IMG/VR virus record: IMGVR_UViG_3300025909_000005
DNA: 64,000 nt
From: a virus
Lineage: Duplodnaviria > Caudoviricetes
Direction: 5' to 3' (one strand)
The notes under the pieces were generated by a model. That model did no database searches. It was not told the DNA's origin and worked only from the letters and a program-made list of their open reading frames with translations. Both the position numbers and the translations under genes were made by a program. Positions 15,651 to 56,095 of the stretch are shown here, piece by piece; the first letter of the stretch is position 1, and each line of letters starts with the position of its first letter.

Positions 15651-16000
15651 CATACTGCAGCAATGCAGTTGTATTGTCGTAATTCGGCATGACTTGAAGG
15701 ATTTGAGACGCGGGTTCGATTCCCGCCGGCTCCACCACAAATCATCTTAGCAAGAACCTTACGCCAACGTTGTGGCAAGGAAAGCAGCAAGGGTGATTTG
15801 TCATGGGGCCGACCAGGCTATCGATCAGGTTACGGAGATGATTGACGCGACACGTCGTAGTGACGTTAAAAACTCGTCTAGTAAACGCAAACGACTCCAA
15901 CTACGCGATCGCCGCTTAATAACCGGCCCGCGCGCGGCATAAGCCACCGTGTAAAAGAATGAGCTAGGACGGACCCGAGGAGCAATCTTTGGGTCCGTCT
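15651..16000 (+). ncRNA. ssrA: two-piece (circularly permuted) tmRNA: acceptor piece ~15651-15737, intervening hairpin 15738-15804, coding piece from 15805; tag (A)ANDSNYAIAA
   Basis: T-arm and CGGCTCC-A-CCA lie upstream of GGGGCCG (7-bp acceptor with G3.U70); tag ORF GCA AAC GAC...GCC GCT TAA at 15887-15919; promoter TATAAT 15640; 3' hairpin 15968-15999. Confidence 0.92.
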
Positions 16001-16068
16001 GCCTTTCCAGGTCGATGGACCTGACTTTCGCTTCCATCGTAAATACGTTCAACTTCAAAGGAGTTGAG

Positions 16069-16503
16069 ATGATGACCCACCTTCTGGCCGCTGTAGTTGC
16101 AGTTGGCCTGGCCGCAGCAACACCCACACCTCGTCAACCCGTGTGGGATGACATAGCGAGTTCGAAGGTGTTCAAGATCAGTCTGGACCTAAAGTCGGTA
16201 GACGTCAAGGCAGACAACACGGTTCATTCTCAGCTGAAGGTCACGTACAACGTGCCCATCCCTGTGAAGGGAAAGAAGAAGACAGGGCACTACTACATCG
16301 AGCAGGTAACTGCAGACTGCGGTGCCGACAAGCTCGTCGTGACTGGTGCCACACTGTTCTCAAAGGACGGTGAGCCTTTGGCGCAAGACGACCACCTCAA
16401 CATGGACCTGCCAAACAACCACATCGATGGCACGTTTGTCACGAGCTTCATGGACCTCATGTGTAACGGCGGCAAAAATACGATTCCTGCGATCAACGTT
16501 TGA
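16069..16503 (+). CDS. secreted/periplasmic protein (adhesin-E-like fold, tentative)
   Basis: signal peptide, two Cys, late promoter. Confidence 0.7.
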   Translation: MMTHLLAAVVAVGLAAATPTPRQPVWDDIASSKVFKISLDLKSVDVKADNTVHSQLKVTYNVPIPVKGKKKTGHYYIEQVTADCGADKLVVTGATLFSKDGEPLAQDDHLNMDLPNNHIDGTFVTSFMDLMCNGGKNTIPAINV

Positions 16504-16532
16504 GTTATAATGACTCATCGACGGTAAATACT

Positions 16533-16651
16533 GAAGGATGTTGTAGCTCACCGGGAGAGCGGCCCCGAGGACGGGGTGTCCAATCATGTTCAGTCGGGTT
16601 CGCCCGTCATGCGTGATAGCGTAGGTGGTTCGATTCCATCCACAACCTTCA
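16533..16651 (+). ncRNA. tRNA-like RNA with irregular acceptor stem and expanded anticodon/variable region
   Basis: TAGCTCA..GAGC D-arm, GGTGG-TTCGATT-CCATC T-arm, about 45 extra nt. Confidence 0.5.
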
Positions 16652-16666
16652 GTGTTATTGTTCGAC

Positions 16667-16738
16667 GCCTCGGTAGCTCAGTGGTAGAGCGGATGCCTCT
16701 AAAACGTCGGGTCGTGGGTTCGATTCCCACCCGGGGCA
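16667..16738 (+). tRNA. amber suppressor tRNA (anticodon CTA), no encoded CCA
   Basis: GCCTCGG/CCGGGGC acceptor, loop CTCTAAA, canonical D and T arms. Confidence 0.85.
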
Positions 16739-16753
16739 CAGATAAGGATGACC

Positions 16754-16960
16754 ATGGGACGTAGACTTTCCCTGCATGAAATGAATGCCATCAGGCATGA
16801 GGACGATGTTCGCAACTCGCAGATCAAGCGAGGCGAATGGAAGCCGAAGACAAACAACAACTATCACTGCGTGTGTGGTTGTGGTGCGTTCGCATGCGTG
16901 TTCGTGAGCTCAATTCCGCAGACGGTCCTGCCCATGGACGAACGATCAAATGTCTCTTAG
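16754..16960 (+). CDS. small Cys-containing protein between the two suppressor tRNAs; its TAG stop lies inside the second tRNA
   Basis: RBS TAAGG; HCVCGCG motif. Confidence 0.55.
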   Translation: MGRRLSLHEMNAIRHEDDVRNSQIKRGEWKPKTNNNYHCVCGCGAFACVFVSSIPQTVLPMDERSNVS

Positions 16961-17026
16961 CTCAATGGGTAGAGCGACGGTCTCTAAAACCGTATGTTCC
17001 GGGTTCGAGCCCCGGAGGGACGGCCA
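16951..17026 (+). tRNA. amber suppressor tRNA (anticodon CTA), G73, CCA encoded
   Basis: perfect ACGGT/ACCGT anticodon stem, loop CTCTAAA, TGTCTCT/AGGGACG acceptor. Confidence 0.9.
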
Positions 17027-18533: not shown

Positions 18534-18890
18534 ATGCAATCGTAGATCCGCGAAGACGCCAAGACCTATCTGTACACCATCTCTCGCCGCGACATCCCTC
18601 TCGCGCAACAAGCTGTGCAAGCCGGCCACGCCGCCCTTGAACACGCTTACCTCTACGGCCGTCCGGCCGACCATCACCCCTCCTACATTCACCTGACGAT
18701 TCGAGACAAGGAACGGCTCGAGAAGCAACGGCGTGCGCTCCAAGAAGCTGGCATTCCGACGGCCGAGTTCCACGAACCGTACAAGGACTGGGGTCTCACC
18801 GCCATTTCCTGCCTCCTCACCGAGGAACAACGTCACCACCTGAAGGGGCTCCAGCTGTGGCGCCTCCCCACCCAAGGAGAAGAAGCATGA
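18534..18890 (+). CDS. peptidyl-tRNA hydrolase type 2-like protein with in-frame TAG at codon 4 (readthrough required)
   Basis: RBS AAGGA 8 nt before ATG CAA TCG TAG; frame continues YLYTISRRDIPLAQQAVQAGHAALE...FHEP...LTAI. Confidence 0.75.
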
Positions 18891-19851: not shown

Positions 19852-20421
19852 ATGACGTAGGTTTTCTCCCCCAAGCTGCAGGCTCTTCGTGAGAAGATGG
19901 CCGCCTGCAACCAGACCCAAGGCCAGACCATTCTCCAGCACGGCGAGTCCGTGGCCGAGTGGTACAAGGACCTGATTGGTGCACGCACACGTGAGTGGCG
20001 CCTGCCTGACTGGTTCGATCCCGCCCTCTTCGAGCTCTGCCCAGATGTGGGGACGATGGAGCGCTACCACATCTACCATGATTGTGGTAAGCCGTACTGC
20101 CGTACGGTTGACGAAGAAGGTCGTCAACACTTCCCTGACCATGCCCGTATCAGCGCCTCCATCTGGCGCGTGACCGGTGGCGACGCGGCTGTTGCTCGTC
20201 TCATCGAACACGACATGGACATGCACACCCTCAAGCCGGCAGATGCCGACACCTACCTGCACCTGGACATTGCTCCAGCTCTGCTTCTCACCGCCCTTGC
20301 TGAACTGCACTCCAACGCCGACATGTTCGGCGGGATCGAGAGCACGTCCTTCAAGATCAAGTTCAAGAACCTCAACAAGCTCGGCAACCGCCTCATCAAC
20401 CGCATCAAGGAGATCGCATAA
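19852..20421 (+). CDS. HD-domain phosphohydrolase with in-frame TAG at codon 3
   Basis: RBS TAAGGA 7 nt before ATG ACG TAG; in frame with ATG 19897; HG..V, YHDCGKP, HFPDHA, HDMDMH. Confidence 0.75.
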
Positions 20422-25540: not shown

Positions 25541-25615
25541 GGGTCCTTAGCTCAGCGGTAGAGCCCCTCCCTTACAAGGAGATTGTCGTAGGTTCGATCC
25601 CTACAGGACCCACCA
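25541..25615 (+). tRNA. tRNA-Val(TAC)
   Basis: cloverleaf, loop CTTACAA, CCA. Confidence 0.9.
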
Positions 25616-25683
25616 TATCAAAGCGCTCCATGGTAGCGTAAGTCTTTTCATGCGGCCGCCGGTCGAGCGTTTTGATATGGTAA

Positions 25684-25808
25684 GGTGTTTGTGGGCAAGA
25701 GACGAAGCCGCCTGCGATTAAGTGGGTTCCAAGTCAATGAGTAGCGTCACCCTTGGGGTCGCGAAAAGCGAGCAAACACGCTGGTTTGAATCCAGCCAAA
25801 CACCACCA
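25684..25808 (+). ncRNA. tRNA-like RNA with 8-bp acceptor, 5-bp T-stem and about 58-nt variable domain
   Basis: GGTGTTTG/CAAACACC-A-CCA; GCTGG-TTTGAAT-CCAGC. Confidence 0.6.
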
Positions 25809-25906
25809 TATCAAAGCACACTCGGTTGTGGCAAGATCAACCAACGTCTGCAGCGTATCCTGCCCAAGGGATCGTGGTTGCGCCTAGTGTGCTTTGATAT
25901 GGTAAT

Positions 25907-25995
25907 GTACGTGCTGTCCTAGGAGAGATAAGTGGATTGTAAATCCGCGGCATAAAAGTAAGTCTGAGTGGGTTCGAATCCCACCGCGTACACCA
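25907..25995 (+). tRNA. tRNA-Tyr(GTA), atypical D-arm
   Basis: loop TTGTAAA, long variable arm, CCA. Confidence 0.75.
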
Positions 25996-26004
25996 ACAGA
26001 ATTT

Positions 26005-26081
26005 GGGCTTGTAGTATTGGGGTTACGGCAGCGCCTTGCAAGTGCTGTGTCAGTGGGGTTCGATTCCCCCCAGGTCCACCA
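26005..26081 (+). tRNA. tRNA-Ala(TGC), atypical
   Basis: G3.U70, loop CTTGCAA, CCA. Confidence 0.75.
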
Positions 26082-26188
26082 AAATTCGCTGCGGCAACGG
26101 TCCTTCATGACGACTGCAGAGAAATGGAACATGAAGGCTGGTCGAACTACCTCCTTGCGAGACCTGCAAAATAAATCGTGGAGGTAAT

Positions 26189-26281
26189 GGAGATGTTAGC
26201 CGAGTTGGCCTAGCGGCAGCGGTCTTGAAAACCGAAGGTTCAGAAATGGACGTGTGAGTTCGAGTCTCACCATCTCCGCCA
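26189..26281 (+). tRNA. tRNA-Ser(TGA)
   Basis: loop CTTGAAA, long variable arm, G73, CCA. Confidence 0.9.
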
Positions 26282-26286
26282 TTGAG

Positions 26287-26492
26287 TTTGTTTTGATCTA
26301 AGTGTGGCTATTGGTTGCTGACAAAGTTCTGCGCTGTCTAGAGCAAGGGACCGAATCGGTGGCTGATATCGTGAAGTTCAAGTAGGGTTCGATTCCCAGC
26401 GGTTGAGGCCGTACAGGTGTCTTGCATGAATCGTTTGCCAGTCAGGAGCTAGACCTCCACCGATCCGTAACGGGCGCTTAGATCAAAACGAA
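26287..26492 (+). ncRNA. structured spacer RNA closed by an 18-bp stem
   Basis: TTTGTTTTGATCTAAGTG/CGCTTAGATCAAAACGAA; internal ATCGGTGG/CCACCGAT; T-loop-like GGGTTCGATTCCC. Confidence 0.55.
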
Positions 26493-26495
26493 TTT

Positions 26496-26571
26496 GGGGG
26501 ATTAGCTCAGCTGGGAGAGCGGCTGCTTTGCAAGCAGTAGGTCAACGGTTCGATCCCGTTATTCTCCACCA
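26496..26571 (+). tRNA. tRNA-Ala(TGC)
   Basis: canonical, G3.U70, CCA. Confidence 0.93.
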
Positions 26572-26655
26572 AAACAAGAAGGTTGTAGGTAGACGGTCTC
26601 TATGGCGCGTACCCGGAAGGGCAACGGCTACGAGTTGGAACCTTCACGAATAATT

Positions 26656-26732
26656 GTCGGGGTGGGAGAGTGGTCCATCCGAGGAGCTGCAACCTCCTAG
26701 ACGCATCGGTTCGATTCCGGCTCCCGACTCCA
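26656..26732 (+). tRNA. tRNA-Cys(GCA)
   Basis: loop CTGCAAC, U73, CCA. Confidence 0.85.
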
Positions 26733-26811
26733 AACATGCAACCGATCTGGCAGGCTTATCGGCAAAATATTCGCCTGTCAAACCTTTTTGTTGCACTTAC
26801 ACGAGACCTCG

Positions 26812-27207
26812 ATGATCTGCAAAGGCTGCGATAAGGAAACTTCGAATCTGAAATACTGTGACAATGCTTGTCAGCAAGTAGCTCAGACGAAGGCCAAAGT
26901 TGAAGCGTTCCTCGAAGGAAAATACGTCGGCAAATTCATGCAGTACGGGACCGGTTCCTGGCCGCGTAGAATGCTGATCGAACATTTTGGTTACAAGTGC
27001 AATGCGCCGGGTTGCACTGTCGCTGATACGTGGCTAGGAAAACCAGTCACGTTGGAAGTGAACCACATTGATGGCATTGCGACAAACAATGTCCTAACGA
27101 ATTTAGAATTCCTGTGCCCCACCTGTCACTCGCAGACGCCCAACTTTCGGGCTCTCAACAAGGTTTCAGTTAGAACGCACAGGAAGCCCCGAGCCCCTTT
27201 AGCATAG
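26812..27207 (+). CDS. HNH endonuclease inserted in the tRNA array
   Basis: LEVNHIDGIATNNVLTNLEFLCPTCHSQT; AT-richer than flanking genes; stop inside tRNA-Thr. Confidence 0.85.
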   Translation: MICKGCDKETSNLKYCDNACQQVAQTKAKVEAFLEGKYVGKFMQYGTGSWPRRMLIEHFGYKCNAPGCTVADTWLGKPVTLEVNHIDGIATNNVLTNLEFLCPTCHSQTPNFRALNKVSVRTHRKPRAPLA

Positions 27208-27267
27208 TGGCACTGCATCCGCCTTGTAAGCGGGAGATCGTCTGTTCGATTCAGACAAGGGGCACCA
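27193..27267 (+). tRNA. tRNA-Thr(TGT)
   Basis: loop CTTGTAA, CCA. Confidence 0.9.
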
Positions 27268-27275
27268 AGAATTTT

Positions 27276-27362
27276 GCGGTCGTGATGGAATTTGGTAGTC
27301 TTCACGCGTTGAGAACGCGTGGCTCTTAGAGCGTGCGGGTTCGACTCCCGCCTTCCGCACCA
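27276..27362 (+). tRNA. tRNA-Leu(GAG)
   Basis: loop TTGAGAA, long variable arm, CCA. Confidence 0.85.
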
Positions 27363-27368
27363 AGTTAT

Positions 27369-27447
27369 CTGTGTGTATTGTCAGTCTGGTTAGACGGCTG
27401 AGTTTGGAACTCGGAGGTCGCAGGTTCAAATCCTGCCACACAGACCA
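27369..27447 (+). tRNA. tRNA-Pro(TGG)
   Basis: loop TTTGGAA, C1-G72, A73. Confidence 0.85.
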
Positions 27448-27475
27448 AGTTATTGTGATACAATGAAAGTTCAAT

Positions 27476-27552
<77 letters not shown>

Positions 27553-27607
27553 TTCACCTACTCGCGTGAAGTAAACGCAGCTGACATCTTCAACAACGGA
27601 GTATGTC

Positions 27608-27889
27608 ATGCGAGTATCAGTGAAGCAAGTTGTTAACGTAGCATTCGCCCACCATGGCGCTCGTACGTTGTCTCCTGGCTGCCTTGGCGAAAATCCTTCG
27701 GGATGGACGATCACAGGTGAAGTGATGGAAGACTACGTTGAGTGGGTCAACTACTTCGAAGCAACGCATCCTACTCTCGGGTGGGTACGCGGCGACTACG
27801 AAGGAATTGTCGAAGCGAAGTCGAAGAAGGCGTACGCGCACTTCATTGAACACCACCCTCCACAAGAGTGGGACTACTGGGACATCTAA
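27608..27889 (+). CDS. hypothetical protein within the tRNA array
   Basis: RBS GGAG, 93 aa. Confidence 0.7.
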   Translation: MRVSVKQVVNVAFAHHGARTLSPGCLGENPSGWTITGEVMEDYVEWVNYFEATHPTLGWVRGDYEGIVEAKSKKAYAHFIEHHPPQEWDYWDI

Positions 27890-27958
27890 CGCCCTTCCTC
27901 TGCGTCATGAGGCTGCTTACCGCCAACGGGGAGAGCGTAAGTTAACAGTTGGATTTTA

Positions 27959-28034
27959 GCGGGCGTAATTCAGTTGGTAGAATGCTTCCTTGCCAAGGAA
28001 GTCGTCGTCGGTTCGAGTCCGATCACCCGCTCCA
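27959..28034 (+). tRNA. tRNA-Gly(GCC)
   Basis: loop TTGCCAA, U73, CCA. Confidence 0.92.
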
Positions 28035-28039
28035 AATTT

Positions 28040-28471
28040 ATGACACCAATCCAAGATTACATTCAGCTCCCACGAGAAACAAGACGTTCGCATCTTGATC
28101 TCACTGCTGAGTGCTCGAAGATCGGTGGAACGTCGAAGGAGTTCAAAGGGCTTCTTGCTTACCATCTTGGAACAACGATTCCATCTGGTCGTCAAGTTTT
28201 CCTCTGCCATGCATGCCATAATGGAGCTTGCTCCAATGTCAAGCACCTCTACTGGGGAACTCCAAAGGACAACTACATTGACTGTGTAGAAGATCGTGGA
28301 ACACTCCATGAAAGAAGTTTGAAAATTCACGGTCAAGAGTTTCTTGCAAAGCGCTACACGAGTGGAAGCTCAGCAGGCGGAAAGGGAAATTCTGGAAGAC
28401 CAAAATCCGAAGAGCACAAGCAAAAGATCGCTGAATCTCTGCGGAAGAAGAAAAATGCGGCTATGGTGTAG
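28040..28471 (+). CDS. HNH/His-Cys-type homing endonuclease with NUMOD3-like tail
   Basis: CHACHNGACSNVKHLYWGTPKDN; KSEEHKQKIAESL; stop inside the next tRNA. Confidence 0.8.
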   Translation: MTPIQDYIQLPRETRRSHLDLTAECSKIGGTSKEFKGLLAYHLGTTIPSGRQVFLCHACHNGACSNVKHLYWGTPKDNYIDCVEDRGTLHERSLKIHGQEFLAKRYTSGSSAGGKGNSGRPKSEEHKQKIAESLRKKKNAAMV

Positions 28472-28530
28472 TGGTAACCCATGACATTGCCAATGTTAAG
28501 ACGCGAGTTCGATTCTCGCTAGCCGCTCCA
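28457..28530 (+). tRNA. tRNA-Gly(GCC)
   Basis: loop TTGCCAA, U73, CCA. Confidence 0.88.
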
Positions 28531-28688
28531 AACACGTTCTGGTTTCGCTAATGAAGCGTAGTCAGATAGACAGACGATCCCGTGTAGTTCGTCTGCGACA
28601 TGCGCCAGCACGGTGGAAAAGTCCACAACTGTGGCCAGCGAGCATTGCTGATTACGAGTAGGGAGTGAAGCTCCGCGGCCCTACACAT

Positions 28689-28775
28689 GCGGGTGTGGTC
28701 CATAGGCGGGCACCAGCCTTCCAAGCTGGCAGTGCGCAAGCACGCAAGTGGGTTCGAGTCCCATCACCCGCTCCA
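28689..28775 (+). tRNA. tRNA-Gly(TCC) with long variable arm
   Basis: loop CTTCCAA, U73; V-arm GTGC-GCAA-GCAC. Confidence 0.8.
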
Positions 28776-28781
28776 AATTCT

Positions 28782-28867
28782 GGGTTCTGAGCAGCACTGG
28801 CGACTGCACCGGACTGTAAATCCGACGCCTTCGGGCATACTTGGTTCGACTCCAAGAGGACCCACCA
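28782..28867 (+). tRNA. tRNA-Tyr(GTA)
   Basis: loop CTGTAAA, long variable arm, CCA. Confidence 0.88.
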
Positions 28868-28872
28868 AATTT

Positions 28873-28947
28873 GCGGGAGTAGCTCAGTGAAAGAGCAGCC
28901 GGTGTATAACCGGACGGTCGTAGGTTCAAGTCCTACCTCCCGCACCA
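28873..28947 (+). tRNA. atypical tRNA, apparent anticodon TAT (Ile) with G33; D-loop lacks GG
   Basis: perfect acceptor and T arms; loop TGTATAA. Confidence 0.55.
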
Positions 28948-28949
28948 GG

Positions 28950-29230
28950 AATTTCAGAAGTACATGCCGCGGCGGAAGCACGACGGCTCCAAGAATTCCC
29001 ACGTGGCGGCGTGAATCCGCTAGTTTGTATAGTCTGTCACTTAACATGACTTTCGTCGCCATTACGTTACTGGTAGGCGTCAACTCAGGACCCCTGGCTT
29101 TCGACTCAAAATCGAAGGAGATACGAAGCTGCTGATGTCGGTGTTGTGAGAACCTTTTCGTTAGGGGAACTCTCTAGGTGCTTGAGCCAAATCTCTTGAA
29201 GTCGTGAGGGTGGAACCTGGCGCAGAAATT
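28950..29230 (+). ncRNA. about 280-nt structured spacer RNA, unknown
   Basis: non-coding; AATTTC/GAAATT ends, CATGACTT/AAGTCGTG, TGGCT/AGCCA stems. Confidence 0.4.
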
Positions 29231-29232
29231 TC

Positions 29233-29349
29233 GGGGACCTAGCTCAGTAGGTAGAGCACTGGATGAAAACGTTGCTGCATAGGTCGACCTTCAATGCACA
29301 ACGAAGTACGTACCGGCTGTCCGAGGTTCGAGCCCTCGGGTCCCCACCA
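29233..29349 (+). tRNA. tRNA-Phe-derived RNA with about 41-nt hairpin inserted in the anticodon loop
   Basis: perfect acceptor, D and T arms; GAGCA-CTGGA-TGAAAA, then insert CGTTG..CAACG, then ACCGG-CTGTC. Confidence 0.65.
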
Positions 29350-29354
29350 GAATT

Positions 29355-29493
29355 TGACAACCGATAGATTAGGATTATCATCCAAGCAGGTATACGTAGG
29401 TTCGAATCCTACACGGTGCGCAAGTGCCGTTCGACAAGTGGTAAAGTCACCCGCCTCGCCGCAAGGCATTTTCCTGTCGCTCCTTTGTTGTCA
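29355..29493 (+). ncRNA. circularly permuted tRNA-like module
   Basis: order: 3' anticodon strand, T-arm, 3' acceptor strand, GCAA loop, 5' acceptor strand, D-arm, 5' anticodon strand; outer TGACAAC/GTTGTCA stem. Confidence 0.65.
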
Positions 29494-29502
29494 CTTAGAT
29501 TT

Positions 29503-29588
29503 GCGGTTGTGATGGAATCTGGTAGTCTTCCTGTGCTCAGAACGCAGGGCCTTCGGGCGTGTGGGTTCGAATCCCACCTTCCGCACCA
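29503..29588 (+). tRNA. tRNA-Leu(CAG)
   Basis: loop CTCAGAA, long variable arm, CCA. Confidence 0.87.
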
Positions 29589-29593
29589 AACAA

Positions 29594-30001
29594 GTGTCCT
29601 ACTCTAGGATTAGTCATAGGAACGACCGGGAAATCATAACCGGATGTAAGCAAACCTATGGAGTGAGAGAGGAATGAGATTTTCCTCACGATTTAGCTCA
29701 CGTACCATGTGTACGAGGAGTATACGGCATCGTTCTGCGATGCTAGCCTATTTGATTGATGCCCTTAGCGGGGACAGTGTGGTGGCACGGATCGTTTTGC
29801 GGTAGTCACCTATGCATGAAGGTTCTTCCCAAGAGTAAGCAAACGTGAGGGGAGACGTCAATCACCAGTTGTCGTAACTGCAGCCTAAGGGTATGCAGTA
29901 CCGGCGCTTCGCCTGCCAATGGCTCCAGGTAGGGACGCACAGTGTGCCGAATCCGTTCAAGCCGGTTTGAGAATAAGGCTGCGTGCCGAATATAGGACCA
30001 C
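29594..30001 (+). ncRNA. about 410-nt structured RNA between tRNA-Leu and tRNA-Ser, unknown family
   Basis: closing GTGTCCTA/TAGGACCAC; several long-range pairings; no credible ORF. Confidence 0.5.
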
Positions 30002-30005
30002 AATT

Positions 30006-30097
30006 GGAGACATGGCAGAGAGGCCGATTGCGCCGGTTTGCTAAACCGGAGATCCACGAAAGTGGGTCCGTGGGTTCGAATCCCACTGTCTCCTCCA
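30006..30097 (+). tRNA. tRNA-Ser(GCT)
   Basis: loop TTGCTAA, long variable arm. Confidence 0.92.
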
Positions 30098-30104
30098 GAA
30101 TTTT

Positions 30105-30189
30105 GCACTCGTGGCGTAATTGGTAGCCGCGCTAGCTTGAGGTGCTAGAGGGGAAACCCGTGCTGGTTCGAGTCCAGTCGAGTGCACCA
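30105..30189 (+). tRNA. tRNA-Leu(GAG)
   Basis: loop TTGAGGT, long variable arm. Confidence 0.9.
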
Positions 30190-30317
30190 GAATGAACTCC
30201 CCTTCGAGGGAATCGCCGAACGTGGTAGGCGTAGAGCGCATGGCTAAGATCGATGATGCAGTGCGAGGCTAAGTAAAGACAACTCTTTCGGGTTATCAGA
30301 CCAAACCCGACCAACAT

Positions 30318-30409
30318 GGAGAAATGGCAGAGAGGCCGATTGCACAACCTTGGAAAGGTTGAGACCGGGTCAAACCGGTCCGTGGGTTCGAATCCCACTT
30401 TCTCCTCCA
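30318..30409 (+). tRNA. tRNA-Ser(GGA)
   Basis: loop TTGGAAA, long variable arm. Confidence 0.92.
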
Positions 30410-30525
30410 TGAAAGAAGACTGGCGTTCCATGCCCGGCCAAAAACCGTAATGCACATGAAAGTGTGGGGCTGTCAGGGAGAAATATGGTGGAAGTAAATC
30501 TCCTTCATCTTCATGAACAAGATTT

Positions 30526-30600
30526 CAGGGTGGGAGGCGTGTGGCAGCCGATGACGTCCGGAGCGTTGTAGTCAGGGTTCGACTCCCTGCACCCTGACCA
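30526..30600 (+). tRNA. tRNA-Pro(CGG), atypical loop (C33)
   Basis: C1-G72, A73, loop TCCGGAG. Confidence 0.65.
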
Positions 30601-30721
30601 GATTTACCTCGCGAGAGGGCTGCCCCTTGTCTACGGACCTGGGGACCAGCAAAGGAACAGCACATCGTGGTTTGCGGCTGTTCCCTTCACCAGCACAGGC
30701 TGGAGGAAGTCCACGAGATCA

Positions 30722-30797
30722 CGGTGCATGGAGTGAGAGGTTAACCGGCTGTGTAACATACAGTCTGATGTAGGTTCGAGTCCTACTGCACCGACCA
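30722..30797 (+). tRNA. atypical or pseudo tRNA (apparent loop GTAACAT)
   Basis: perfect acceptor and T-arm, weak D-arm. Confidence 0.5.
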
Positions 30798-30802
30798 ATT
30801 TC

Positions 30803-30885
30803 GTTTCGATAGCTCAAGGGACAGAGCACGTGGCCCAAGAGGTAGGTACGATGGAAAGCGGTTCGACTCCGCAACGAAACATCCA
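30803..30885 (+). pseudogene. degenerate tRNA-like gene
   Basis: D and T arms recognisable; anticodon arm irregular. Confidence 0.4.
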
Positions 30886-31051
30886 ATTTGAAGCGTTAGC
30901 ATGAGAGAATCCTGCATGCCTAATTGTCGTTTGTCCGAGGTCCGACTGGTTGTCGATGAACGATTACAGCGACGTGGATCGGCCGATCCTAGCTGTTTGT
31001 GACTACCTGGTTGTGGGGAGTAACGGTCCCACCGCTTCAATTCAATTTCAT

Positions 31052-31126
31052 GGGGGCAGCAATGGGTTGCGGTTCTCGCTGGCAGCGAGGATGTCTAGAC
31101 GAGTTCGATTCTCGCGGTCTCCACCA
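31052..31126 (+). tRNA. tRNA-Ala(GGC), atypical
   Basis: G3.U70, loop CTGGCAG, CCA. Confidence 0.7.
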
Positions 31127-31475
31127 GATTTGATCCAAGGCATTAGCCGCCCCTAGGCAAGTCCCAACGAAAGTTGAGGTGGAACGCAGTGTTGAAGCGT
31201 TGAGGATCGCCCGAACAAGTCACGGCTTGGAACTCCGCAGTGCGCCATGGAACTCTGCGTCGATAAGAGAAGGCAGTCGTGCACCAATTTGAGAGCTAGA
31301 TGCGGATACGGGACACCCACGTCGGAAAACCCTTCCACCGCCATGACAGAACGTAGACGAGCTAGTGGATGCAGCATGAAACCTCGTAGGCGTGGTTGCC
31401 GTAGAGGAAGTTCCCTGCTCTAGGCCAACCTACGCAGGCAATCACTGCTCTCAATGAACATGGTATAATGAACTC

Positions 31476-31691: not shown

Positions 31692-31695
31692 TTGC

Positions 31696-31772
31696 GCCCT
31701 TGTACGCTAATCGGCAGTGCGGCTCCCCTTAAAATGGAGTGGTTGTGGGCTCGAATCCCACCTTGGGCACCA
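31696..31772 (+). tRNA. tRNA-Leu(TAA), short variable loop
   Basis: loop CTTAAAA, A73, CCA. Confidence 0.78.
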
Positions 31773-31778
31773 ACCCTG

Positions 31779-31926: not shown

Positions 31927-31958
31927 TGATAAATAGTCCTCCAACAGGAGGACGATGA

Positions 31959-46329: not shown

Positions 46330-47001
46330 GTGGCACGCGATCACCTTTTCACTGGCGAAACCTGGCTCAAGGAGCAGAAGCTCATTCAGCCAGAAGAGCT
46401 GCGTTCGACCCCGATCAAGTACGTCTTCTTGGACATTGATGGCGTGCTGAACTCTTCGGGCTCATGCCTCGTGAAGACTGGTCCGATTCGTGACTCGATT
46501 CAAATGGAGAGCTTTCAGCACCTCCACATGGTCTGGGCTGATGAGGACTTCCAGCTCGACTACCGGAAGCAGGACACGATCGACACCGCGGATCCGACTG
46601 CCGTTGCGTTGATGACGCGGCTGCTCGTCAAGGGCCACTGCAAGCTGGTCATGAGCTCCTCGCACCGCTACTCCTTCCGAGATCACCCACGTCTACCGTG
46701 CGGTTATAACTCAAAGGAGCACCGCGTCTGGCTGGCCCTGTACCTCCAGGCCATGGGCCTGGGCTTCTTTGGTGAGCTCGACATCACACCTGACCTTCAC
46801 TGCGAGCGCGGCCATGAGGTCGACATGTACATTGAAAATGTGCTCCAAGACGGTGATAAATACGTGATCATCGATGATGGTGCAGATTTCTTCTCGCACC
46901 AGAACCTGGTGAAGACAGATCCCACGGTCGGTTTCACGCACACGAACTACCTCGAGTGCTGCAAGATCCTGGGTATCGACGAGTCCTCACTCATCTACTA
47001 G
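46330..47001 (+). CDS. HAD-superfamily (Swiss-Army-knife RNA-repair-like) phosphatase; ends in TAG
   Basis: FLDIDGVLNS, SSSHR, YVIIDD. Confidence 0.75.
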   Translation: MARDHLFTGETWLKEQKLIQPEELRSTPIKYVFLDIDGVLNSSGSCLVKTGPIRDSIQMESFQHLHMVWADEDFQLDYRKQDTIDTADPTAVALMTRLLVKGHCKLVMSSSHRYSFRDHPRLPCGYNSKEHRVWLALYLQAMGLGFFGELDITPDLHCERGHEVDMYIENVLQDGDKYVIIDDGADFFSHQNLVKTDPTVGFTHTNYLECCKILGIDESSLIY

Positions 47002-48770: not shown

Positions 48771-48847
48771 GCGACTGTAGTTCAACTGGATAGAATGCGG
48801 GCCTCCTAAGCCTGAGGTTGTGGGTTCGAACCCCGCCAGTCGCACCA
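48771..48847 (+). tRNA. tRNA-Arg(CCT), isolated
   Basis: canonical cloverleaf, loop CTCCTAA, CCA. Confidence 0.92.
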
Positions 48848-49397: not shown

Positions 49398-49618
49398 TGG
49401 ATTGGATGAAGTTTCTCCACATCGCCGTCTGGACGTTCGCCATTGGCGTTACGATCATCACCGTGCTCTCGCTGGCCTTCTTCGCGTGGCGCGAGTTCAC
49501 CACCGAGGGTCGGCTGGACAAGGCCCTCGATGCACTCAAGGGCCGGGTCTACAGCTTCCGGATGTCACTTCTCGTCTACACCGTCTTTGCGTGGATCGCA
49601 GTGGCTTGCCTGCGCTGA
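49397..49618 (+). CDS. small membrane protein
   Basis: two TM helices. Confidence 0.6.
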   Translation: MDWMKFLHIAVWTFAIGVTIITVLSLAFFAWREFTTEGRLDKALDALKGRVYSFRMSLLVYTVFAWIAVACLR

Positions 49619-50179
49619 GCGCACCAGGTGACCGTGAATCAGCTGCATTGAGATGTCATCACCGACGATGCAGACCGTCAGGTCTGAGTCAGGCGTGACC
49701 TGACGTGAGTCGCGCTGGCCAAGCACCCGCTCTGCGATCTTCTTGAGGAAGTCTAGAGCACCGTGACGTTCATGCTCGGGGACCAGACGAAGGTTCCTCG
49801 ATTCGATGAACAGGACTGGCTTGCCAAGTACAGGATTCCAGTCTCGGTTGCACTCGCGCTCAACAGTGTCAATCACGAACTGAGCGATCGCCTCGCTGCG
49901 GTTCTGGTGACGGTGCTCAGGGAAAACCTCAATGTGCTCGAGTGAGATCGTGCGGCGTTCCACACCGTCGGCGAAGAACTGGTAGGCTGAGAACTTGCTC
50001 TTACCGATCAGCACACCACGGTGAACCATGTGCAGGTCCCAGTGACGGTTGCGCCAATCGAGCTTGTGGAGGTGAAGTGCTGGAAAGTTGAAGTCGAGGT
50101 TCGTTACGACACCATCATCCTCGCCTGCCGGAGCAATGACGATGTCCACTCCATCCTTGTCGTAGATCAGGTCCATCAT
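49565..50179 (-). CDS. hypothetical late protein
   Basis: coupled downstream of the glycosyltransferase. Confidence 0.6.
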   Translation of the reverse strand: MMDLIYDKDGVDIVIAPAGEDDGVVTNLDFNFPALHLHKLDWRNRHWDLHMVHRGVLIGKSKFSAYQFFADGVERRTISLEHIEVFPEHRHQNRSEAIAQFVIDTVERECNRDWNPVLGKPVLFIESRNLRLVPEHERHGALDFLKKIAERVLGQRDSRQVTPDSDLTVCIVGDDISMQLIHGHLVRSAQASHCDPRKDGVDEK

Positions 50180-51222
50180 GCCTCCAAGTAGTTGAGCCAG
50201 CGGCGACGAGAAGCAGATGCGTAGATCGACAGACCGGCGCGGTTGTTGTGGATGAAGAACTTCTTGTTGCTCATGATGAGCTCAAGCTTGCGCAGGCAGT
50301 CACCGACAGATTGAGGGTCGCCGTACGTTGGGTAGGCCCAAGAAATCTCCTTCGAGACGATGATTGGGCGGCCAACGAGGGTGGCATCGGCGGCGACGAT
50401 GTTGAACGTCTCGGAGATGGAGAGCTGCATGAGCAGGTCAACCTGTGACAGAGAGTTCAGGAAGGTCTCGCGATCTTCCCAGTCATGTACGATAAGCTCA
50501 GCACCGGCGTTGGACAGCAGCGAGGTAACGTTCCGAGATACTGGAGCGCCACCTGAGTCCATGCGGCCATTGGTGTGGAAGCGGAGCTGCTTGCCCTGCT
50601 TCTCTGCAAACTCGAGAGCAATGAAGGCCTGCTGAAGCTGGTTCTTCAGAGGACGGAAGGCGCCGAAGCAGGCGATGTCCAGGTGATCCTTTGCCGATGT
50701 GTCGAGGTTTTGGATGGGAAACGGAGAGTAGTCAACCGGGTAGCAGTTCGGCAGGTACACGACGTTGTTGGTGTTGCCGAGCATCTTCTTCGACAGCCAT
50801 GAGATCTGCTCATGGGCGCGAGGAGCGTTCGGTGAAACGATAACGCCCTGCTGCAGGTACTGGGCAATCCAATCCATCGCAATTCCTTCTGTCGCGATGA
50901 ACGGAATTTCGGAGTGAATGCGAACGTGCCAGTTGACAGCTTGGTGGCGCTGAATACGCAGCAGCTCGGTGAACTTGGCAGGGGTAACCCACAGACCTTC
51001 GATGAAGACGTCTGTTGGTTGGTAGGCGGTTACAACACGGTCGATGTCGTTGGCGTCGATGACCAGTTCAATCTCGGCTTCTCGGCCGGCAGCATTGAGC
51101 TCATCGACAACGAACTTAGCCGAGTTCCACATGCCTGTAGCGATCTGATAGGAGCCCGAGTAGCTCGGGTCCTGCGAGTAATCCTCGCGACGCTTCAAGA
51201 TGAAGAGGGAACGGGTGGTCAT
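50176..51222 (-). CDS. GT-B (family 1/4-like) glycosyltransferase
   Basis: IACFGAFRPLKNQ, SISETFNIVAADA..VGRPIIVS; minus-strand late promoter TAAATA at 51250-51255. Confidence 0.78.
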   Translation of the reverse strand: MTTRSLFILKRREDYSQDPSYSGSYQIATGMWNSAKFVVDELNAAGREAEIELVIDANDIDRVVTAYQPTDVFIEGLWVTPAKFTELLRIQRHQAVNWHVRIHSEIPFIATEGIAMDWIAQYLQQGVIVSPNAPRAHEQISWLSKKMLGNTNNVVYLPNCYPVDYSPFPIQNLDTSAKDHLDIACFGAFRPLKNQLQQAFIALEFAEKQGKQLRFHTNGRMDSGGAPVSRNVTSLLSNAGAELIVHDWEDRETFLNSLSQVDLLMQLSISETFNIVAADATLVGRPIIVSKEISWAYPTYGDPQSVGDCLRKLELIMSNKKFFIHNNRAGLSIYASASRRRWLNYLEA

Positions 51223-51949: not shown

Positions 51950-52144
51950 ATGTTTCCTACAGACTACCGCCTCGTCGAGCGTGCACTTCAAGCAAGCTAC
52001 AAGCTGCGGGGCCTGCAGGAAATCCTCAAGCTCTTGAAGGATTTCCTCAGCCGTGGAACCATCGAGGACTTTGCAGCAGATCCATTAGGGATCGCTGTGA
52101 AGTTTCCCGATGAGGACGACTTCAACTACATCTCACTGACATGA
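51950..52144 (+). CDS. hypothetical protein
   Basis: 64 aa. Confidence 0.55.
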   Translation: MFPTDYRLVERALQASYKLRGLQEILKLLKDFLSRGTIEDFAADPLGIAVKFPDEDDFNYISLT

Positions 52145-52662
52145 AAATCACAGACACCCAGGTCCTCTTCTGGCGGACCGCTGACATCTACTCCAACTGG
52201 CACCCAAGCGAGTTCACTCTCCCGTACTCGTTCGATGTCGATGTCAAGGGGTTTGTCTTTGACAACGCAGAGCAGGCGCTGATGTTCTACAAGGCCCAGA
52301 TGATGGGCGATGAAGAGACGTCACTGAAGATCTTGGCGGCCAAGGGGCAACACCCGAACGTGGTGAAGCAGCTTGGCCGCCAGGTGAAGAACTGGAATGA
52401 GAAGATGTGGGTGGCGGGCCGCGAGCAGGTCATGGTGGAGATTCTCGTTGAGAAGTTTCACCAGAACCCGAATCTTGAGGACCAACTCCTTGCGACCGGC
52501 ACCCGTCGCATTGTTGAGGCCTCGCCCGTTGACAAGATCTGGGGCATTGGATTGGAAGAGAACGACCCACGCTGCGCTGACGAAAGCCAGTGGCAGGGGT
52601 TGAACCTACTAGGAGATACGCTCGAAAAGACGCGCAGCATTCTCCTTCAGTGGCCCGCATGA
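52141..52662 (+). CDS. NADAR (YbiA-like) protein
   Basis: YSNWHPS, AEQALMFYKA, LGRQV, KFHQN, EASPVDKIWGIG, GLNLLG. Confidence 0.9.
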   Translation: MKITDTQVLFWRTADIYSNWHPSEFTLPYSFDVDVKGFVFDNAEQALMFYKAQMMGDEETSLKILAAKGQHPNVVKQLGRQVKNWNEKMWVAGREQVMVEILVEKFHQNPNLEDQLLATGTRRIVEASPVDKIWGIGLEENDPRCADESQWQGLNLLGDTLEKTRSILLQWPA

Positions 52663-52677: not shown

Positions 52678-53676
52678 ATGAAGAACATCCTGAAGACCTT
52701 TGGCCCAAACGAGAGTGGCCGTGACTTTGTCATCGGCGACCTCCATGGCGCGTACGACTGCTTTGAGAACCTCCTGCGTGGCATCAACTTCGATGAGAAG
52801 CGCGATCGCATGTTTTCCGTCGGCGACCTCGTCGACCGTGGTCCGAAGCCGCTCGAGTGCCTCGGTCTTCTGCGCAAGAACTGGTTCCATGCTGTGCTCG
52901 CCAATCACGAGCAGATGATGTACGAGGGCTTCAACGGCGGTTACATGGGCGCCTACTGGTTCATGAACGGCGGTGGGTGGGGCATGTCTGCTTGGAACGT
53001 GGCTGAGGCCATCAAGAAGCGCGACTCAGGCCTGCTCGACCCGCAGAACATGCCCATCATCACGGACGATGACTTCGAACTGCTCGACCTACTGCCGCTC
53101 GTTGAAGAGCTGCCGTACCTGATCACGATCAACCACAAGAGTGGGAAGAAGTTCCACATCATCCATGCTGAGCTGCCACCCGGTCATCAGATCACCGATG
53201 ACACTCTGTCCAGCCCTGGCAAGGTCGAAGAGTTGGCCACGATTCAAACGCAGAACGGCGGCGACACGATGTGCTGGGGTCGCTACCTCTTCATGCCGTT
53301 CTACGACCGTGACCTGAACAACCGCAACAAGGTGCTGCGCATCATCAAGCGCGGCCACGCCTTGGGCATGTTCAATGACAAGCTGTCGCACATCATCTCT
53401 GGTCACACGATTCTGAAGCGCCCGCTGACGATTCTCGGTCAAACGAACATCGACACTGAAGCATACGGCTCGTACCCGGAGAAGCGCGGGTCGCAGTACG
53501 GCGTTGCTGGCTACGAGCGGCCTGCTCCTCAGTGGAAGGGTTTGACGTGCGTCAACTTGGATGACTGGACGTTTGTCAACGCGACACCCACCCAGTTTCG
53601 CGAAGTCGAGCCGATGGTTGTAAATAGACAGGATCTTCTGGATTTATCGGAAGATGAGGAGCCCAAAGATGAGTGA
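52678..53676 (+). CDS. metallophosphoesterase (PphA/NinI-like Ser/Thr phosphatase)
   Basis: GDLHG, GDLVDRG, ANHE, HAE, SGHT. Confidence 0.87.
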   Translation: MKNILKTFGPNESGRDFVIGDLHGAYDCFENLLRGINFDEKRDRMFSVGDLVDRGPKPLECLGLLRKNWFHAVLANHEQMMYEGFNGGYMGAYWFMNGGGWGMSAWNVAEAIKKRDSGLLDPQNMPIITDDDFELLDLLPLVEELPYLITINHKSGKKFHIIHAELPPGHQITDDTLSSPGKVEELATIQTQNGGDTMCWGRYLFMPFYDRDLNNRNKVLRIIKRGHALGMFNDKLSHIISGHTILKRPLTILGQTNIDTEAYGSYPEKRGSQYGVAGYERPAPQWKGLTCVNLDDWTFVNATPTQFREVEPMVVNRQDLLDLSEDEEPKDE

Positions 53677-53878
53677 GATTACCATTCGAATTCCTGTTTC
53701 ACCAGAGCAGGAAGAAGTCATCGCCCTTCACCTGCTGAAGGGAACTGTCTTGGGCATGGTCGAAGACGAGAGAGCGTGGATGCTCGCTCACGCCCGCAAC
53801 CTCCATCCCGGCTGCACGATCAAGGCAGCCGACCTGGACGTTGGTGAGGGTGAATGGGTCCTCGACCTTGAAGTGTAA
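53669..53878 (+). CDS. hypothetical protein
   Basis: RBS GAGGAG. Confidence 0.55.
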   Translation: MSEITIRIPVSPEQEEVIALHLLKGTVLGMVEDERAWMLAHARNLHPGCTIKAADLDVGEGEWVLDLEV

Positions 53879-53929
53879 CAGTTGAACACGTCAACCCTGT
53901 TCGATGTATAATGGGACATCGACAAACGA

Positions 53930-54136
53930 TTGACACCCAGGATCATGTACCGCACCACCCGTCGTGAAGACAACGAAGACAACGTCATTCGCATTGAGCG
54001 TCAGAAGCCCCGTGCTCGCGAGCTCAATGAGACCCTGATGCGTCGCAAGGGCGGTCCGATGAAGAATCCGAAGGACGTCTCTCGCTCCAAGGAAAAGCAA
54101 GCGCTCCGTCGAGGCGACTACAACCTCGAGGAATGA
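53930..54136 (+). CDS. basic hypothetical protein
   Basis: after hairpin-embedded promoter. Confidence 0.55.
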   Translation: MTPRIMYRTTRREDNEDNVIRIERQKPRARELNETLMRRKGGPMKNPKDVSRSKEKQALRRGDYNLEE

Positions 54137-54345
54137 CCATGCACAAGATGAAGGCAGGAGATCTGGTTCGCTTGAACCCGGTCAACATGCAGCCCGCAGA
54201 CCCTCTGCTGGTGCACTCGAACCGCGCCTTCAAAGTGCTGAGCTTCACCGAAGACGGAGTCAACATCGAATCCGTCAAACGCTCGCAGATGATGCACATC
54301 GTCATCTCGGGCATCCGCCGCAACGAGCTACAGTACATCGTATAA
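54133..54345 (+). CDS. hypothetical protein
   Basis: ATGA overlap. Confidence 0.55.
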   Translation: MTMHKMKAGDLVRLNPVNMQPADPLLVHSNRAFKVLSFTEDGVNIESVKRSQMMHIVISGIRRNELQYIV

Positions 54346-54762
54346 ATGGATGAAGACCTGAAGTATGTCGAGAATGAACTCTCGATGAAGTTGAGGGGTG
54401 CGCTCCTCGGCAAGACACTCAATGCGTTTGGCGACGATGGCTTCGGTCAACGTGGCCAACACCCATTTGCGAAGTTCTACAAGATTCTCGACGTCGATGT
54501 TGGCACGTACTTGAAGACATGGAAAGACAAGGGCGACACGATCGAAGCGCAGCTCGTCATTCGCCTCGAAGACTACCACTGGCCAACTCTCGATGCAATC
54601 ACCGATCAGAACCTCGAACTGTCGCTCACGAAGCTCCTCACGGATGCTGGCATGAAGCGCAGCGACCTCGAATTCGTCAACATAAAGACCCAGGTGGTCT
54701 ACGTCGGCTACTCAAGCATGGCCTTCAACCTCGATGTCCCATCTTTGATGGACTGGGCTTAA
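54346..54762 (+). CDS. hypothetical protein
   Basis: 138 aa. Confidence 0.6.
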   Translation: MDEDLKYVENELSMKLRGALLGKTLNAFGDDGFGQRGQHPFAKFYKILDVDVGTYLKTWKDKGDTIEAQLVIRLEDYHWPTLDAITDQNLELSLTKLLTDAGMKRSDLEFVNIKTQVVYVGYSSMAFNLDVPSLMDWA

Positions 54763-54794
54763 CACGTCTTCCTTACTTTGGTGTATAATCGACC

Positions 54795-54992
54795 ATGAAT
54801 CACGCAGAGCTGCAAGCCATCGTCAACGAGAACATGGACAACGCGTTGGACAACGCGCCCGAGTTCATTAAGACGGCGTCAAACCTCGCCATCGCCGAGG
54901 ACATGCTGGAGTACTGTGCAGACTTCGAGTTCCTCGACCTATCGCCTGACGACCTGGTCCCCTTCATCGAAACATGGTGGAACAAGGTATGA
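54795..54992 (+). CDS. acidic hypothetical protein
   Basis: near-leaderless after TATAAT. Confidence 0.6.
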   Translation: MNHAELQAIVNENMDNALDNAPEFIKTASNLAIAEDMLEYCADFEFLDLSPDDLVPFIETWWNKV

Positions 54993-56095
54993 AGATCTAC
55001 ATCGTCGGTGGCGCAGTTCGCGACGCCGCAATGGGCCTGAAAGCTAAGGACGAGGACTACGTCGTCGTTGGCGCGACGCCTGAAGAGATGCTGGCCAAGG
55101 GCTTCAAGCAGGTCGGCGCAGACTTCCCAGTTTTCCTGCACCCGCAGAGCGGTGATGAATGGGCTCTGGCACGGACGGAACGCAAGTCAGGTTCCGGCTA
55201 CCTGGGCTTCGACGTCGAAACTGACGGCGTGACGCTGGAAGAAGACCTGTCGCGTCGCGACCTGACGATGAACGCAATGGCCATCGCCATTGGCTCCACA
55301 GAGATCATCGACCCATTCGGCGGTCTGAACGACATCAAGAACAGGGTGCTGCGCCACATCGGCCCGGCCTTTGCTGAGGACCCGCTGCGCGTCATCCGCC
55401 TGGCTCGCTTCTTTGCTCGCTACGAAGACTTCGTCGTCGCTGAGGAAACTGCCGAGCTGTGCAAGCAGGTGGTCAACAGCGGTGAGCTGGATGCCCTGCC
55501 GTTCGAGCGCTTCTGGGCCGAACTGGAGAAGGTCTTCACTGAGAAGCGGCCTGATCGCTTCTTCCAGGCGCTGCACGAAATGGGTGCGCTGAAGAAGGTG
55601 CGGTTCTTCCAACGCGTCTTTGGCGACACGCCGATCCAAACGCTGATGGGCGTTGCTGAAAAGCTGAAGCTGTCTCAAGAACAGCGCGTTCGTCAGTTCG
55701 TCGCCCTCGTCGGCACGCAGAAGGAACTGAAGAACGTTGCGGCGTCGACCGAGATCATGGACGTGCACCGCAACCTGCGCTTCGCGCGTTCGATCAAGAA
55801 GGTCGTCAACCGAGAAAGCGTGCATGCCTTCATCAAGCAGGCAGGCGGCTTTCAACGCGGTGAACACCACCTGACTCAGCAGTCGCTGGATGCACTGGAC
55901 GCGATCTCGTTGTCTCATCAACTGGGTCTGGATGACTTCTCTTCGCTGGCAGAGGGCTGGTTCATGATGGCCTGGATGAACGCCACGCGTGTAGGACAAG
56001 CCGACTTCCCTGAGCTCTCGGGCAAGGAGCTGGGCGAGGCCATCAAGAACAAGCGCATGGACCTGATCATGAGCTCGATCAACATGTCAACCTGA
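54989..56095 (+). CDS. cca: tRNA nucleotidyltransferase (class II CCA-adding enzyme, short form without HD domain)
   Basis: IVGGAVRD, DEDYVV, ALARTERK, EEDLSRRDLTMNAMA, DPFGG, EDPLRVIRLARF. Confidence 0.93.
   Translation: MKIYIVGGAVRDAAMGLKAKDEDYVVVGATPEEMLAKGFKQVGADFPVFLHPQSGDEWALARTERKSGSGYLGFDVETDGVTLEEDLSRRDLTMNAMAIAIGSTEIIDPFGGLNDIKNRVLRHIGPAFAEDPLRVIRLARFFARYEDFVVAEETAELCKQVVNSGELDALPFERFWAELEKVFTEKRPDRFFQALHEMGALKKVRFFQRVFGDTPIQTLMGVAEKLKLSQEQRVRQFVALVGTQKELKNVAASTEIMDVHRNLRFARSIKKVVNRESVHAFIKQAGGFQRGEHHLTQQSLDALDAISLSHQLGLDDFSSLAEGWFMMAWMNATRVGQADFPELSGKELGEAIKNKRMDLIMSSINMST

Follow-up and report, generated by a model that had tools for sequence, protein, structure and literature searches.

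Introduction

Translation-related gene sets have been described in several large phages. Iyer et al. (2021) proposed that jumbo phages answer attack on translation with CCA enzymes, RNA repair and tRNAs of their own (PMC7824862), and the translation genes that Al-Shayeb et al. (2020) listed for huge phages include transfer-messenger RNA (tmRNA), SmpB, CCA enzymes and release factors (PMC7162821). Experiments in which phage tRNAs overcome tRNA-cutting defenses are known (PMC10264068, PMC11555353, PMC11464382, PMC12851939), and counter-defense by phage tRNAs and RNA repair is already a published idea (PMC7824862, PMC10264068). RNase P does not occur once in PMC7824862 or PMC7162821, and our literature search found no paper describing a phage-encoded RNase P RNA. 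Here we analyze a 64,000-nt stretch of the Caudoviricetes record IMGVR_UViG_3300025909_000005 (the window). It carries a predicted, divergent type-A RNase P RNA at 35160-35568 (+), together with tRNAs, a two-piece tmRNA, and genes for a CCA-adding enzyme, an HD-superfamily protein, a HAD phosphatase-like protein and a PTH2-fold protein.

Our favored explanation, to which we assign a probability of roughly 0.6 as a whole, is that the window represents the part of an uncultured giant soil phage that provides stable RNAs and supports translation, that this region consists of several small modules inherited partly separately rather than a single machine, and that it serves to keep translation running. 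A first-pass annotation, made from the letters of the window, had listed the same parts and read them as a near-complete toolkit for tRNA maturation, repair and ribosome rescue, forming a coordinated defense against host immunity rather than codon supplementation. ARAGORN, Rfam, Pfam, structural models and homology confirm that every listed part is present. The interpretation placed on them holds only in part, as set out below.

Results

A phage family of divergent RNase P RNAs

The first-pass annotation had called an RNase P RNA in the window, and this call stands by homology to relatives. By blastn, the window RNA aligns with a related locus, L129:2622-2975, at 80% over 102 nt (E 2e-22). The L129 RNA matches the Rfam family RF00010 over its full length (56.2 bits, E 1.9e-16) and a covariance model of the bacterial 3' part (29.7 bits, E 2.3e-6). 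Because the window RNA is homologous to L129 and L129 matches RF00010, the window RNA belongs to a family of RNase P RNAs found in phages and is, judged from its sequence, a predicted ribozyme. A metagenome scan with the shared CR-I variant returned 25 loci, plus one in IMG/VR, and 16 distinct full-length RNAs could be aligned as one family. RF00010 matched 10 of the 11 related loci scanned, at 60-75 bits, all below 100. Relatives overall score 56-75 bits (E 1e-16 to 1e-21), and neither they nor the window copy reach the RF00010 gathering score of 100 bits.

Helices placed on the 16-RNA alignment comprise the type-A elements P1-P6, P15 and P16, along with two hairpins. Paired cells make up 97.7% of the alignment at these positions, versus 28-44% when the partners are slid. 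Of the 57 pairs, 26 show compensatory change, some of them in the pseudoknot helices P2 and P6, and none of 500 shuffles reached the observed pairing and covariation values. P4 and P5 are invariant and hence uninformative for covariation. Taken together, the helices of the type-A catalytic domain (P1-P6, P15, P16) have been kept through compensatory change.

The window copy forms the most divergent branch of this family and has a large P19 hairpin. P1 (strands GCTCAATCACC/GGTGATTGAGC), P2, P4, P5, P6, P15 and P16 still pair. An extended -10 element, TGATATAAT, lies at 35146-35154, directly upstream of P1; a simple promoter scan found no full sigma-70 site. Two models of the bacterial 3' part, a cleaned profile (E 0.65) and a covariance model (E 0.51), both place their best match in the window at 35386-35438, the expected place and strand, and neither match is significant. 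An nhmmer profile built from 99 bacterial RNase P RNAs over their whole length matched neither the window nor the candidate, the window does not contain the canonical CR-I 11-mer, and the minimum free energy fold of the RNA is no better than that of shuffles (z -0.53). The 15-mer GTAGAACCCCGGCTA, used as a probe of IMG/VR, gave three matches, all due to chance, and scans of IMG/VR with protein patterns from both genes flanking the RNA found nothing.

Several observations weigh against an intact RNase P RNA in this lineage, and with it against our favored explanation. Rfam gave no RNase P RNA match in the window at E<=1, nor in 35050-35720 at E<=10. Three core strands are substituted relative to the family and bacteria: J3/4 reads GAAC-AAG rather than GAGG-AAG, J18/2 reads GUAGUCAAAUG rather than GUAGAUGAAUG, and J2/4 reads GUAGAA rather than ACAGAA. 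These changes mark a lineage, as the window, L135 and L147 share GAAC/GAAG-AAG, GUAGUCAAAUG and GUAGAA, versus GAGG-AAG, GUAGAUGAAUG (or a close variant) and ACAGAA in the 13 other members. L147, close kin of the window copy, is without most of the specificity domain, and in two relatives the flanking genes are adjacent, with no RNA between them. The window RNase P RNA may accordingly be weakened or inactive, as far as its sequence indicates. In L147:204-507, about 105 nt of the specificity domain are gone while the catalytic-domain helices are retained; this RNA may represent either a naturally minimized RNase P or a copy in decay.

The same substitutions, the truncation in L147 and the missing Rfam match are what one would expect if the region were plain supply, that is, if its tRNAs and their helpers raised translation capacity after host transcription shut-off and the window RNase P RNA were an inactive, decaying relic. 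CCA enzymes are, in addition, common accessories, with homologs in 481 phage records. Nevertheless, the seven helices that still pair and the extended -10 placed exactly upstream of P1 speak against a relic, and L135, a near-identical copy of the window RNA on a separate contig, argues against rapid decay. The tRNA set, moreover, does not follow the codon use of the window (see below). We therefore regard plain supply with a relic RNA as unlikely.

In 5 of the 11 related loci scanned, Rfam places a two-piece tmRNA at a distance of 1-3 kb from the RNase P RNA, and ARAGORN adds two more; this linkage makes sense because RNase P is responsible for 5'-end maturation of both tRNA and tmRNA. tRNAs often directly flank the RNase P RNA in related loci, and suppressor tRNAs occur on the same contigs. 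tRNA genes abut the RNase P RNA on both sides in L129:2539-3069 and on one side in L137:915-1334, and in L136:1-505 one tRNA lies 14 nt upstream and another abuts downstream. Given these abutting tRNAs, the ends of the RNase P RNA would be made by tRNA processing, and its 3' end by RNase P itself. In L144, the open reading frames (ORFs) that separate the RNase P RNA from the tmRNA are neither SmpB nor RnpA. At the head of a tRNA array, L157:12895-13017 matches the bacterial 3'-part model weakly (19.2 bits, E 0.0014), with no Rfam match, and sits inside a called ORF without a family.

A blastn search of 50,697 deposited phage records gave no match to the family. RF00010 matches nothing in Xanthomonas phage Xoo-sp13, and the 310-kb relative (L006/L007) has no RNase P-like RNA in the 30 kb examined. 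A query with bacterial rnpB did find a canonical RNase P RNA in Microcystis phage MaAM05 (MW495066.1; RF00010, 251.8 bits), at L159:1462-1861 (~115284-115683), in an unannotated gap of its 274-kb genome.

tRNAs, a two-piece tmRNA and codon use

ARAGORN finds 28 tRNAs in the window, slightly fewer than the earlier estimate of about 30, all on the + strand and in agreement with Rfam. Reading of their 3' ends showed that CCA is encoded in 26 of the 28, the exceptions being those at 16667 and 33085, exactly the two that the first-pass annotation had named. Most of them, 25 genes, form an array at 25541-33563 (+; ARAGORN, Rfam, 3' ends read), which includes the CCA-less tRNA-Ile (UAU) at 33085 (+). 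A tRNA-Arg (CCU) stands apart at 48771-48847 (+; ARAGORN, Rfam). The remaining two are amber suppressors with anticodon CUA (ARAGORN, Rfam): one at 16667-16739 (+), without encoded CCA, and a second at 16951-17026 (+), with encoded CCA, a U1-G72 pair and G73. They fall into two orthologous groups, the 16667 tRNA having orthologs in L157, L138 and L158 and the 16951 tRNA in L158.

Upstream of the suppressors, the two-piece (circularly permuted) tmRNA spans 15573-16010 (+; ARAGORN 15645-16010, Rfam). It scores 102 bits with RF04321 and 91.9 bits with RF01850, each above its gathering score, and ARAGORN reads its tag as ANDSNYAIAA followed by two stops. Both the model scores and a tag frame that closes in AA and then a stop thus place it among two-piece tmRNAs, as had been predicted.

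Some tRNA-like features are unusual. An 87-nt 'tRNA-Gly(UCC)' is of odd length, and two additional weak tRNA-like Rfam matches have no ARAGORN call; the positions noted for these features are 28689-28775, 25907-25995, 32312-32375 and 30803-30881. In one relative, an ochre-suppressor tRNA (anticodon UUA; L154:348-422) lies near the tmRNA and RNase P RNA.

The first-pass annotation had set codon supplementation aside, and codon use lends this some support. Across 41 window genes, ATA makes up 1% of Ile codons, and TTA, CTA, AGG and GGA account for 0%, 3%, 4% and 7% of their respective sets; tRNAs are present for all five, two of them for ATA. TAG is the terminator in 2 of the 41 genes. The tRNA set is thus unlike a simple match to phage codon use, a weak point, as it draws on 41 window genes only.

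A conserved amber codon in a PTH2-fold gene

A gene at 18534-18890 (+), recognized by translation, AlphaFold2 (AF2) modeling and Foldseek, has an in-frame TAG at codon 4 (18543-18545) and encodes 118 amino acids if the TAG is read as a residue. The product had been called a PTH2-like hydrolase. Its match to Pfam PTH2 (PF01981), 12.8 bits (E 0.14), falls below the required 23 bits, leaving the family assignment short of the Pfam cut-off. The fold is another matter: the AF2 model, with 83 homologs aligned, has a predicted local distance difference test (pLDDT) score of 90.6, and its significant Foldseek matches are nearly all archaeal or human Pth2 structures, with template modeling (TM) scores of 0.63-0.70. 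Among them, 1wn2, 2zv3, 3erj, 1q7s and 1xty match at TM 0.64-0.70 with a Foldseek probability of 1.00. A Pth2 fold is therefore confirmed at the level of the predicted structure.

The amber codon is conserved. All five large phage contigs examined (window, L005, L006, L157, L158) begin this gene with ATG-N-N-TAG, with the start peptides MQS*I, MKQ*I, MKH*I, MRS*T and MTL*I. Among the 144 homologs, those free of TAG have Gln at this site. CUA suppressor tRNAs lie near the gene in 4 of the 5 contigs, and L158 has the same order as the window: tmRNA, two CUA tRNAs, PTH2-fold gene. The first beta-strand of the model (residues 11-18) precedes the next usable start codon. Of the 120 homolog clusters listed, about one third have short gene calls (88-92 amino acids), which is what this stop would produce in them. 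Besides its amber-interrupted PTH2-fold gene, the 310-kb relative carries a canonical PTH2 gene (PF01981) at L007:12525-12926; no ortholog of that canonical gene is present in the window.

An HD-less CCA-adding enzyme and a separate HD protein

The predicted CCA-adding enzyme is supported by several models. The gene at 54974-56095 (+) encodes a putative class-II enzyme (Pfam, NCBIfam, PHROG 2244) that matches PF01743 at 9e-21, with both the PolyA_pol head (74.9 bits) and the neck (30.2 bits) above cut-off, and PHROG 2244 at 1e-100. The E. coli-type Cca model of NCBIfam (PRK10885) aligns at 1.6e-94, over profile positions 1-239 of 409 only, from which it follows that the enzyme is without an HD domain. 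Its score with the NCBIfam Cca equivalog, 317 bits, stays below the cut-off of 451 because the HD half is missing. In the Protein Data Bank (PDB), the enzyme aligns to residues 38-251 of the 3WFO-3WFS chains, and to other chains including 1VFG and 3H37.

About 35 kb away, the gene at 19852-20421 (+; table-11 ORF from 19897) encodes an HD-superfamily protein, identified by Pfam, PHROG, motif and model. Pfam HD scores 18.8 bits against a cut-off of 22 (E 0.002), and NCBIfam HDIG is likewise below cut-off; the metal-ligand residues H30, H76, D77, H97 and D121 (H..HD..H..D) are invariant across 19 aligned homologs, which upholds the earlier call despite the Pfam score. With this motif and an HD fold in its AF2 model (pLDDT 95.8), the protein belongs to the HD superfamily. 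It matches PHROG 14850 at 5.6e-61, and its family counts 452 clusters. A TAG at codon 3 of this gene was considered as a required read-through and rejected, as Met at 19897 is invariant and several homologs begin there.

Over its whole length, the HD model is best matched by 3WFR residues 245-447 (VIA-align Z 15.1). The superposition on the 3WFO-3WFS tRNA nucleotidyltransferase has a root mean square deviation (rmsd) of 3.3 Å over 162 residues at 22% identity, and many other HD enzymes match at Z 8-11, about 4 Z units lower. The HD family profile also matches the 3WFO-3WFS chains, at E 0.0013; PDB sequence searches with the single HD or the single HAD protein found nothing. In E. coli Cca, the HD domain has phosphatase and cyclic phosphodiesterase activity. 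In its modeled structure, the window protein is similar to the HD-bearing half of a class-II tRNA nucleotidyltransferase, with a gene separate from that of the CCA enzyme. This supports the idea that the HD function, and with it 3'-end healing, may act in trans to the CCA enzyme that lacks it, as in a possible split Cca.

Phosphatase-like proteins and genomic setting

A stand-alone phosphatase-like protein is encoded at 46330-47001 (+; long ORF from 46216). Its HAD_SAK_2 match (PF18143, 56.4 bits against a cut-off of 27.5) agrees with the HAD SAK-type phosphatase of the first-pass annotation, and all 120 listed homologs carry PF18143. These homologs are single-domain proteins of about 190 amino acids, and P0122, the window protein, has 223; no homolog was found in deposited phages. 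A calcineurin-like metallophosphoesterase of NinI/ApaH-like type at 52678-53676 (+; Pfam, NCBIfam, PHROG 246) is, from its sequence, a further possible candidate for end healing.

The window has a G+C content of about 57%. It has no close DNA relative among the 50,697 deposited phage records, where matches are tRNA-sized only. A window-encoded protein recurs on metagenome contigs of up to 376,608 bp, and syntenic relatives measure 310 kb and 332 kb; the window is therefore part of a giant uncultured phage. Nearly all window genes are encoded on the + strand; the minus strand has only two clear genes, at 50176-51222 (-) and 49565-50179 (-), one of which weakly resembles the 'GT4-conflict' glycosyltransferase family.

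The left flank carries genes for nicotinamide adenine dinucleotide (NAD) salvage, an NMNAT/Nudix fusion at 5460-6584 and NadV at 10339-11811, and a NADAR gene for ADP-ribose processing lies at 52141-52662. All three are of kinds linked to counter-defense in large phages, and the NAD-salvage/ADP-ribose pair is also found in the 310-kb relative (L006). A NadV-based scan of species genomes gave no match. Also in the left flank, at 8936-10279, an adenylosuccinate-synthetase-like gene has the PurZ-type phrog_1211 as its best PHROG; its product could be PurA or a 2-aminoadenine pathway enzyme.

Missing components and dispersed parts

Pfam scans covering about 90 window ORFs gave no match to an RNA ligase, a kinase, SmpB, RnpA, a synthetase or a release factor, and for the window the description of the toolkit as near-complete is overstated. 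Any repair of anticodon cuts would need a ligase and a kinase, and neither was among these ORFs. The parts that are present are spread across 40 kb among unrelated genes, and the HD gene is absent at the syntenic site of the 310-kb relative (L006/L007). Roles for the HAD, HD and PTH2-fold proteins are read from fold and family names only. These name-based roles and the lack of RnpA, SmpB, ligase and kinase in the window count against our favored explanation, together with the points given above for the RNase P RNA.

An alternative view is that all parts form one coordinated counter-defense system against tRNA-cleaving or translation-stalling immunity, such as anticodon nucleases, PARIS, retron effectors or Cas12a3, which cuts tRNA tails. 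The parts are real, several act on tRNA ends, and phage tRNAs and RNA-repair genes are known or proposed counter-defenses (PMC7824862, PMC10264068, PMC11555353, PMC11464382, PMC12851939). Other genes of anti-defense type (NADAR, NadV, NMNAT/Nudix) stand in the window, and so do tRNAs for codons that its genes scarcely use. Set against this are the missing ligase and kinase, the dispersal of the parts over 40 kb between unrelated genes, and relatives that hold differing subsets of them. No defense-linked trigger or sensor was seen in the window, and the shared strand says nothing on co-regulation because nearly all window genes lie on one strand. A contribution to counter-defense is plausible; a single coordinated system seems improbable to us.

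Discussion

Our favored explanation remains a modular region that supports translation. Two small linkages recur in related phages: one joins the RNase P RNA to tmRNA and tRNAs, the other joins tmRNA to amber suppressors and the TAG-bearing PTH2-fold gene. In the mechanism we propose, the phage would transcribe many tRNA and tmRNA precursors, and its RNase P RNA, probably bound to host RnpA, would add 5'-trimming capacity. The CCA enzyme would finish the two CCA-less tRNAs and restore nibbled 3' ends, after the HD protein, perhaps with the HAD protein or the metallophosphoesterase, had removed 2',3'-cyclic or 3'-phosphate ends. tmRNA and host SmpB would release stalled ribosomes, and the suppressor tRNAs would be required to decode the early TAG of the PTH2-fold gene. 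The net effect may be that translation continues when the host tRNA supply drops or is damaged, whether by shut-off or by defense.

We offer a bolder extension only tentatively. A giant soil and freshwater phage lineage might have long kept its own active type-A RNase P ribozyme below the Rfam cut-off, co-inherited with a two-piece tmRNA and suppressor tRNAs; we lean against this, but find it worth stating. Equally speculative is that, in some members, the ends of the RNase P RNA are cut from tRNA precursors by the very reactions that RNase P RNA catalyzes. It is likewise possible, although we would not bet on it, that the PTH2-fold gene is translated only if the amber suppressors work, in which case the phage may sense or tune its own decoding.

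Three elements are new here: a phage RNase P RNA family missed by the standard annotation threshold, a Cca-like HD protein apart from the CCA enzyme as a possible split bifunctional Cca, and a conserved amber codon by which a PTH2-fold gene is linked to suppressor tRNAs. If these RNase P RNAs are active, some phages would rely less on their host to mature tRNA 5' ends, and the family would offer natural, reduced type-A ribozymes for study.

Comparison with known systems

The window resembles the gene sets of jumbo and huge phages (PMC7824862, PMC7162821) in its many tRNAs, CCA enzyme, tmRNA, phosphoesterases, NADAR and NAD salvage, and the purpose proposed for the former sets, to forestall attacks on the translation apparatus (PMC7824862), could apply here. 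Unlike the jumbo-phage sets, it has no ligase or kinase, and has a separate Cca-type HD gene and a conserved amber in its PTH2-fold gene. The repair of PrrC-cut tRNA-Lys by T4 Pnkp and Rnl1 is likewise a phage answer to tRNA damage that involves a HAD-type phosphatase domain; in contrast to that system, no kinase or RNA ligase is present among the window ORFs, and the HAD protein is HAD_SAK_2, not T4 Pnkp.

With respect to E. coli Cca and the 3WFO-3WFS structures, the CCA enzyme corresponds to the head and neck and the HD protein to the HD-bearing half. The halves differ from these enzymes in being two genes 35 kb apart.

The RNase P RNA family shares with RF00010 and E. coli M1 RNA the helices P1-P5, the P4 and P6 pseudoknots, J5/15, P15/P16 with a GGGU-type L15 loop, and J18/2, which is altered in the window copy, and its P19-type hairpin is found in some bacteria. 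It departs from RF00010 in its score (56-75 bits versus 100), in a reduced specificity domain and in its P4 strands, AAGUUCGGGG/CCCCGGCUA. Like MaAM05, the window has an RNase P RNA within a giant-phage genome. The MaAM05 copy is canonical and probably a recent acquisition from a host, whereas the window family is of sufficient age to have drifted below the Rfam cut-off.

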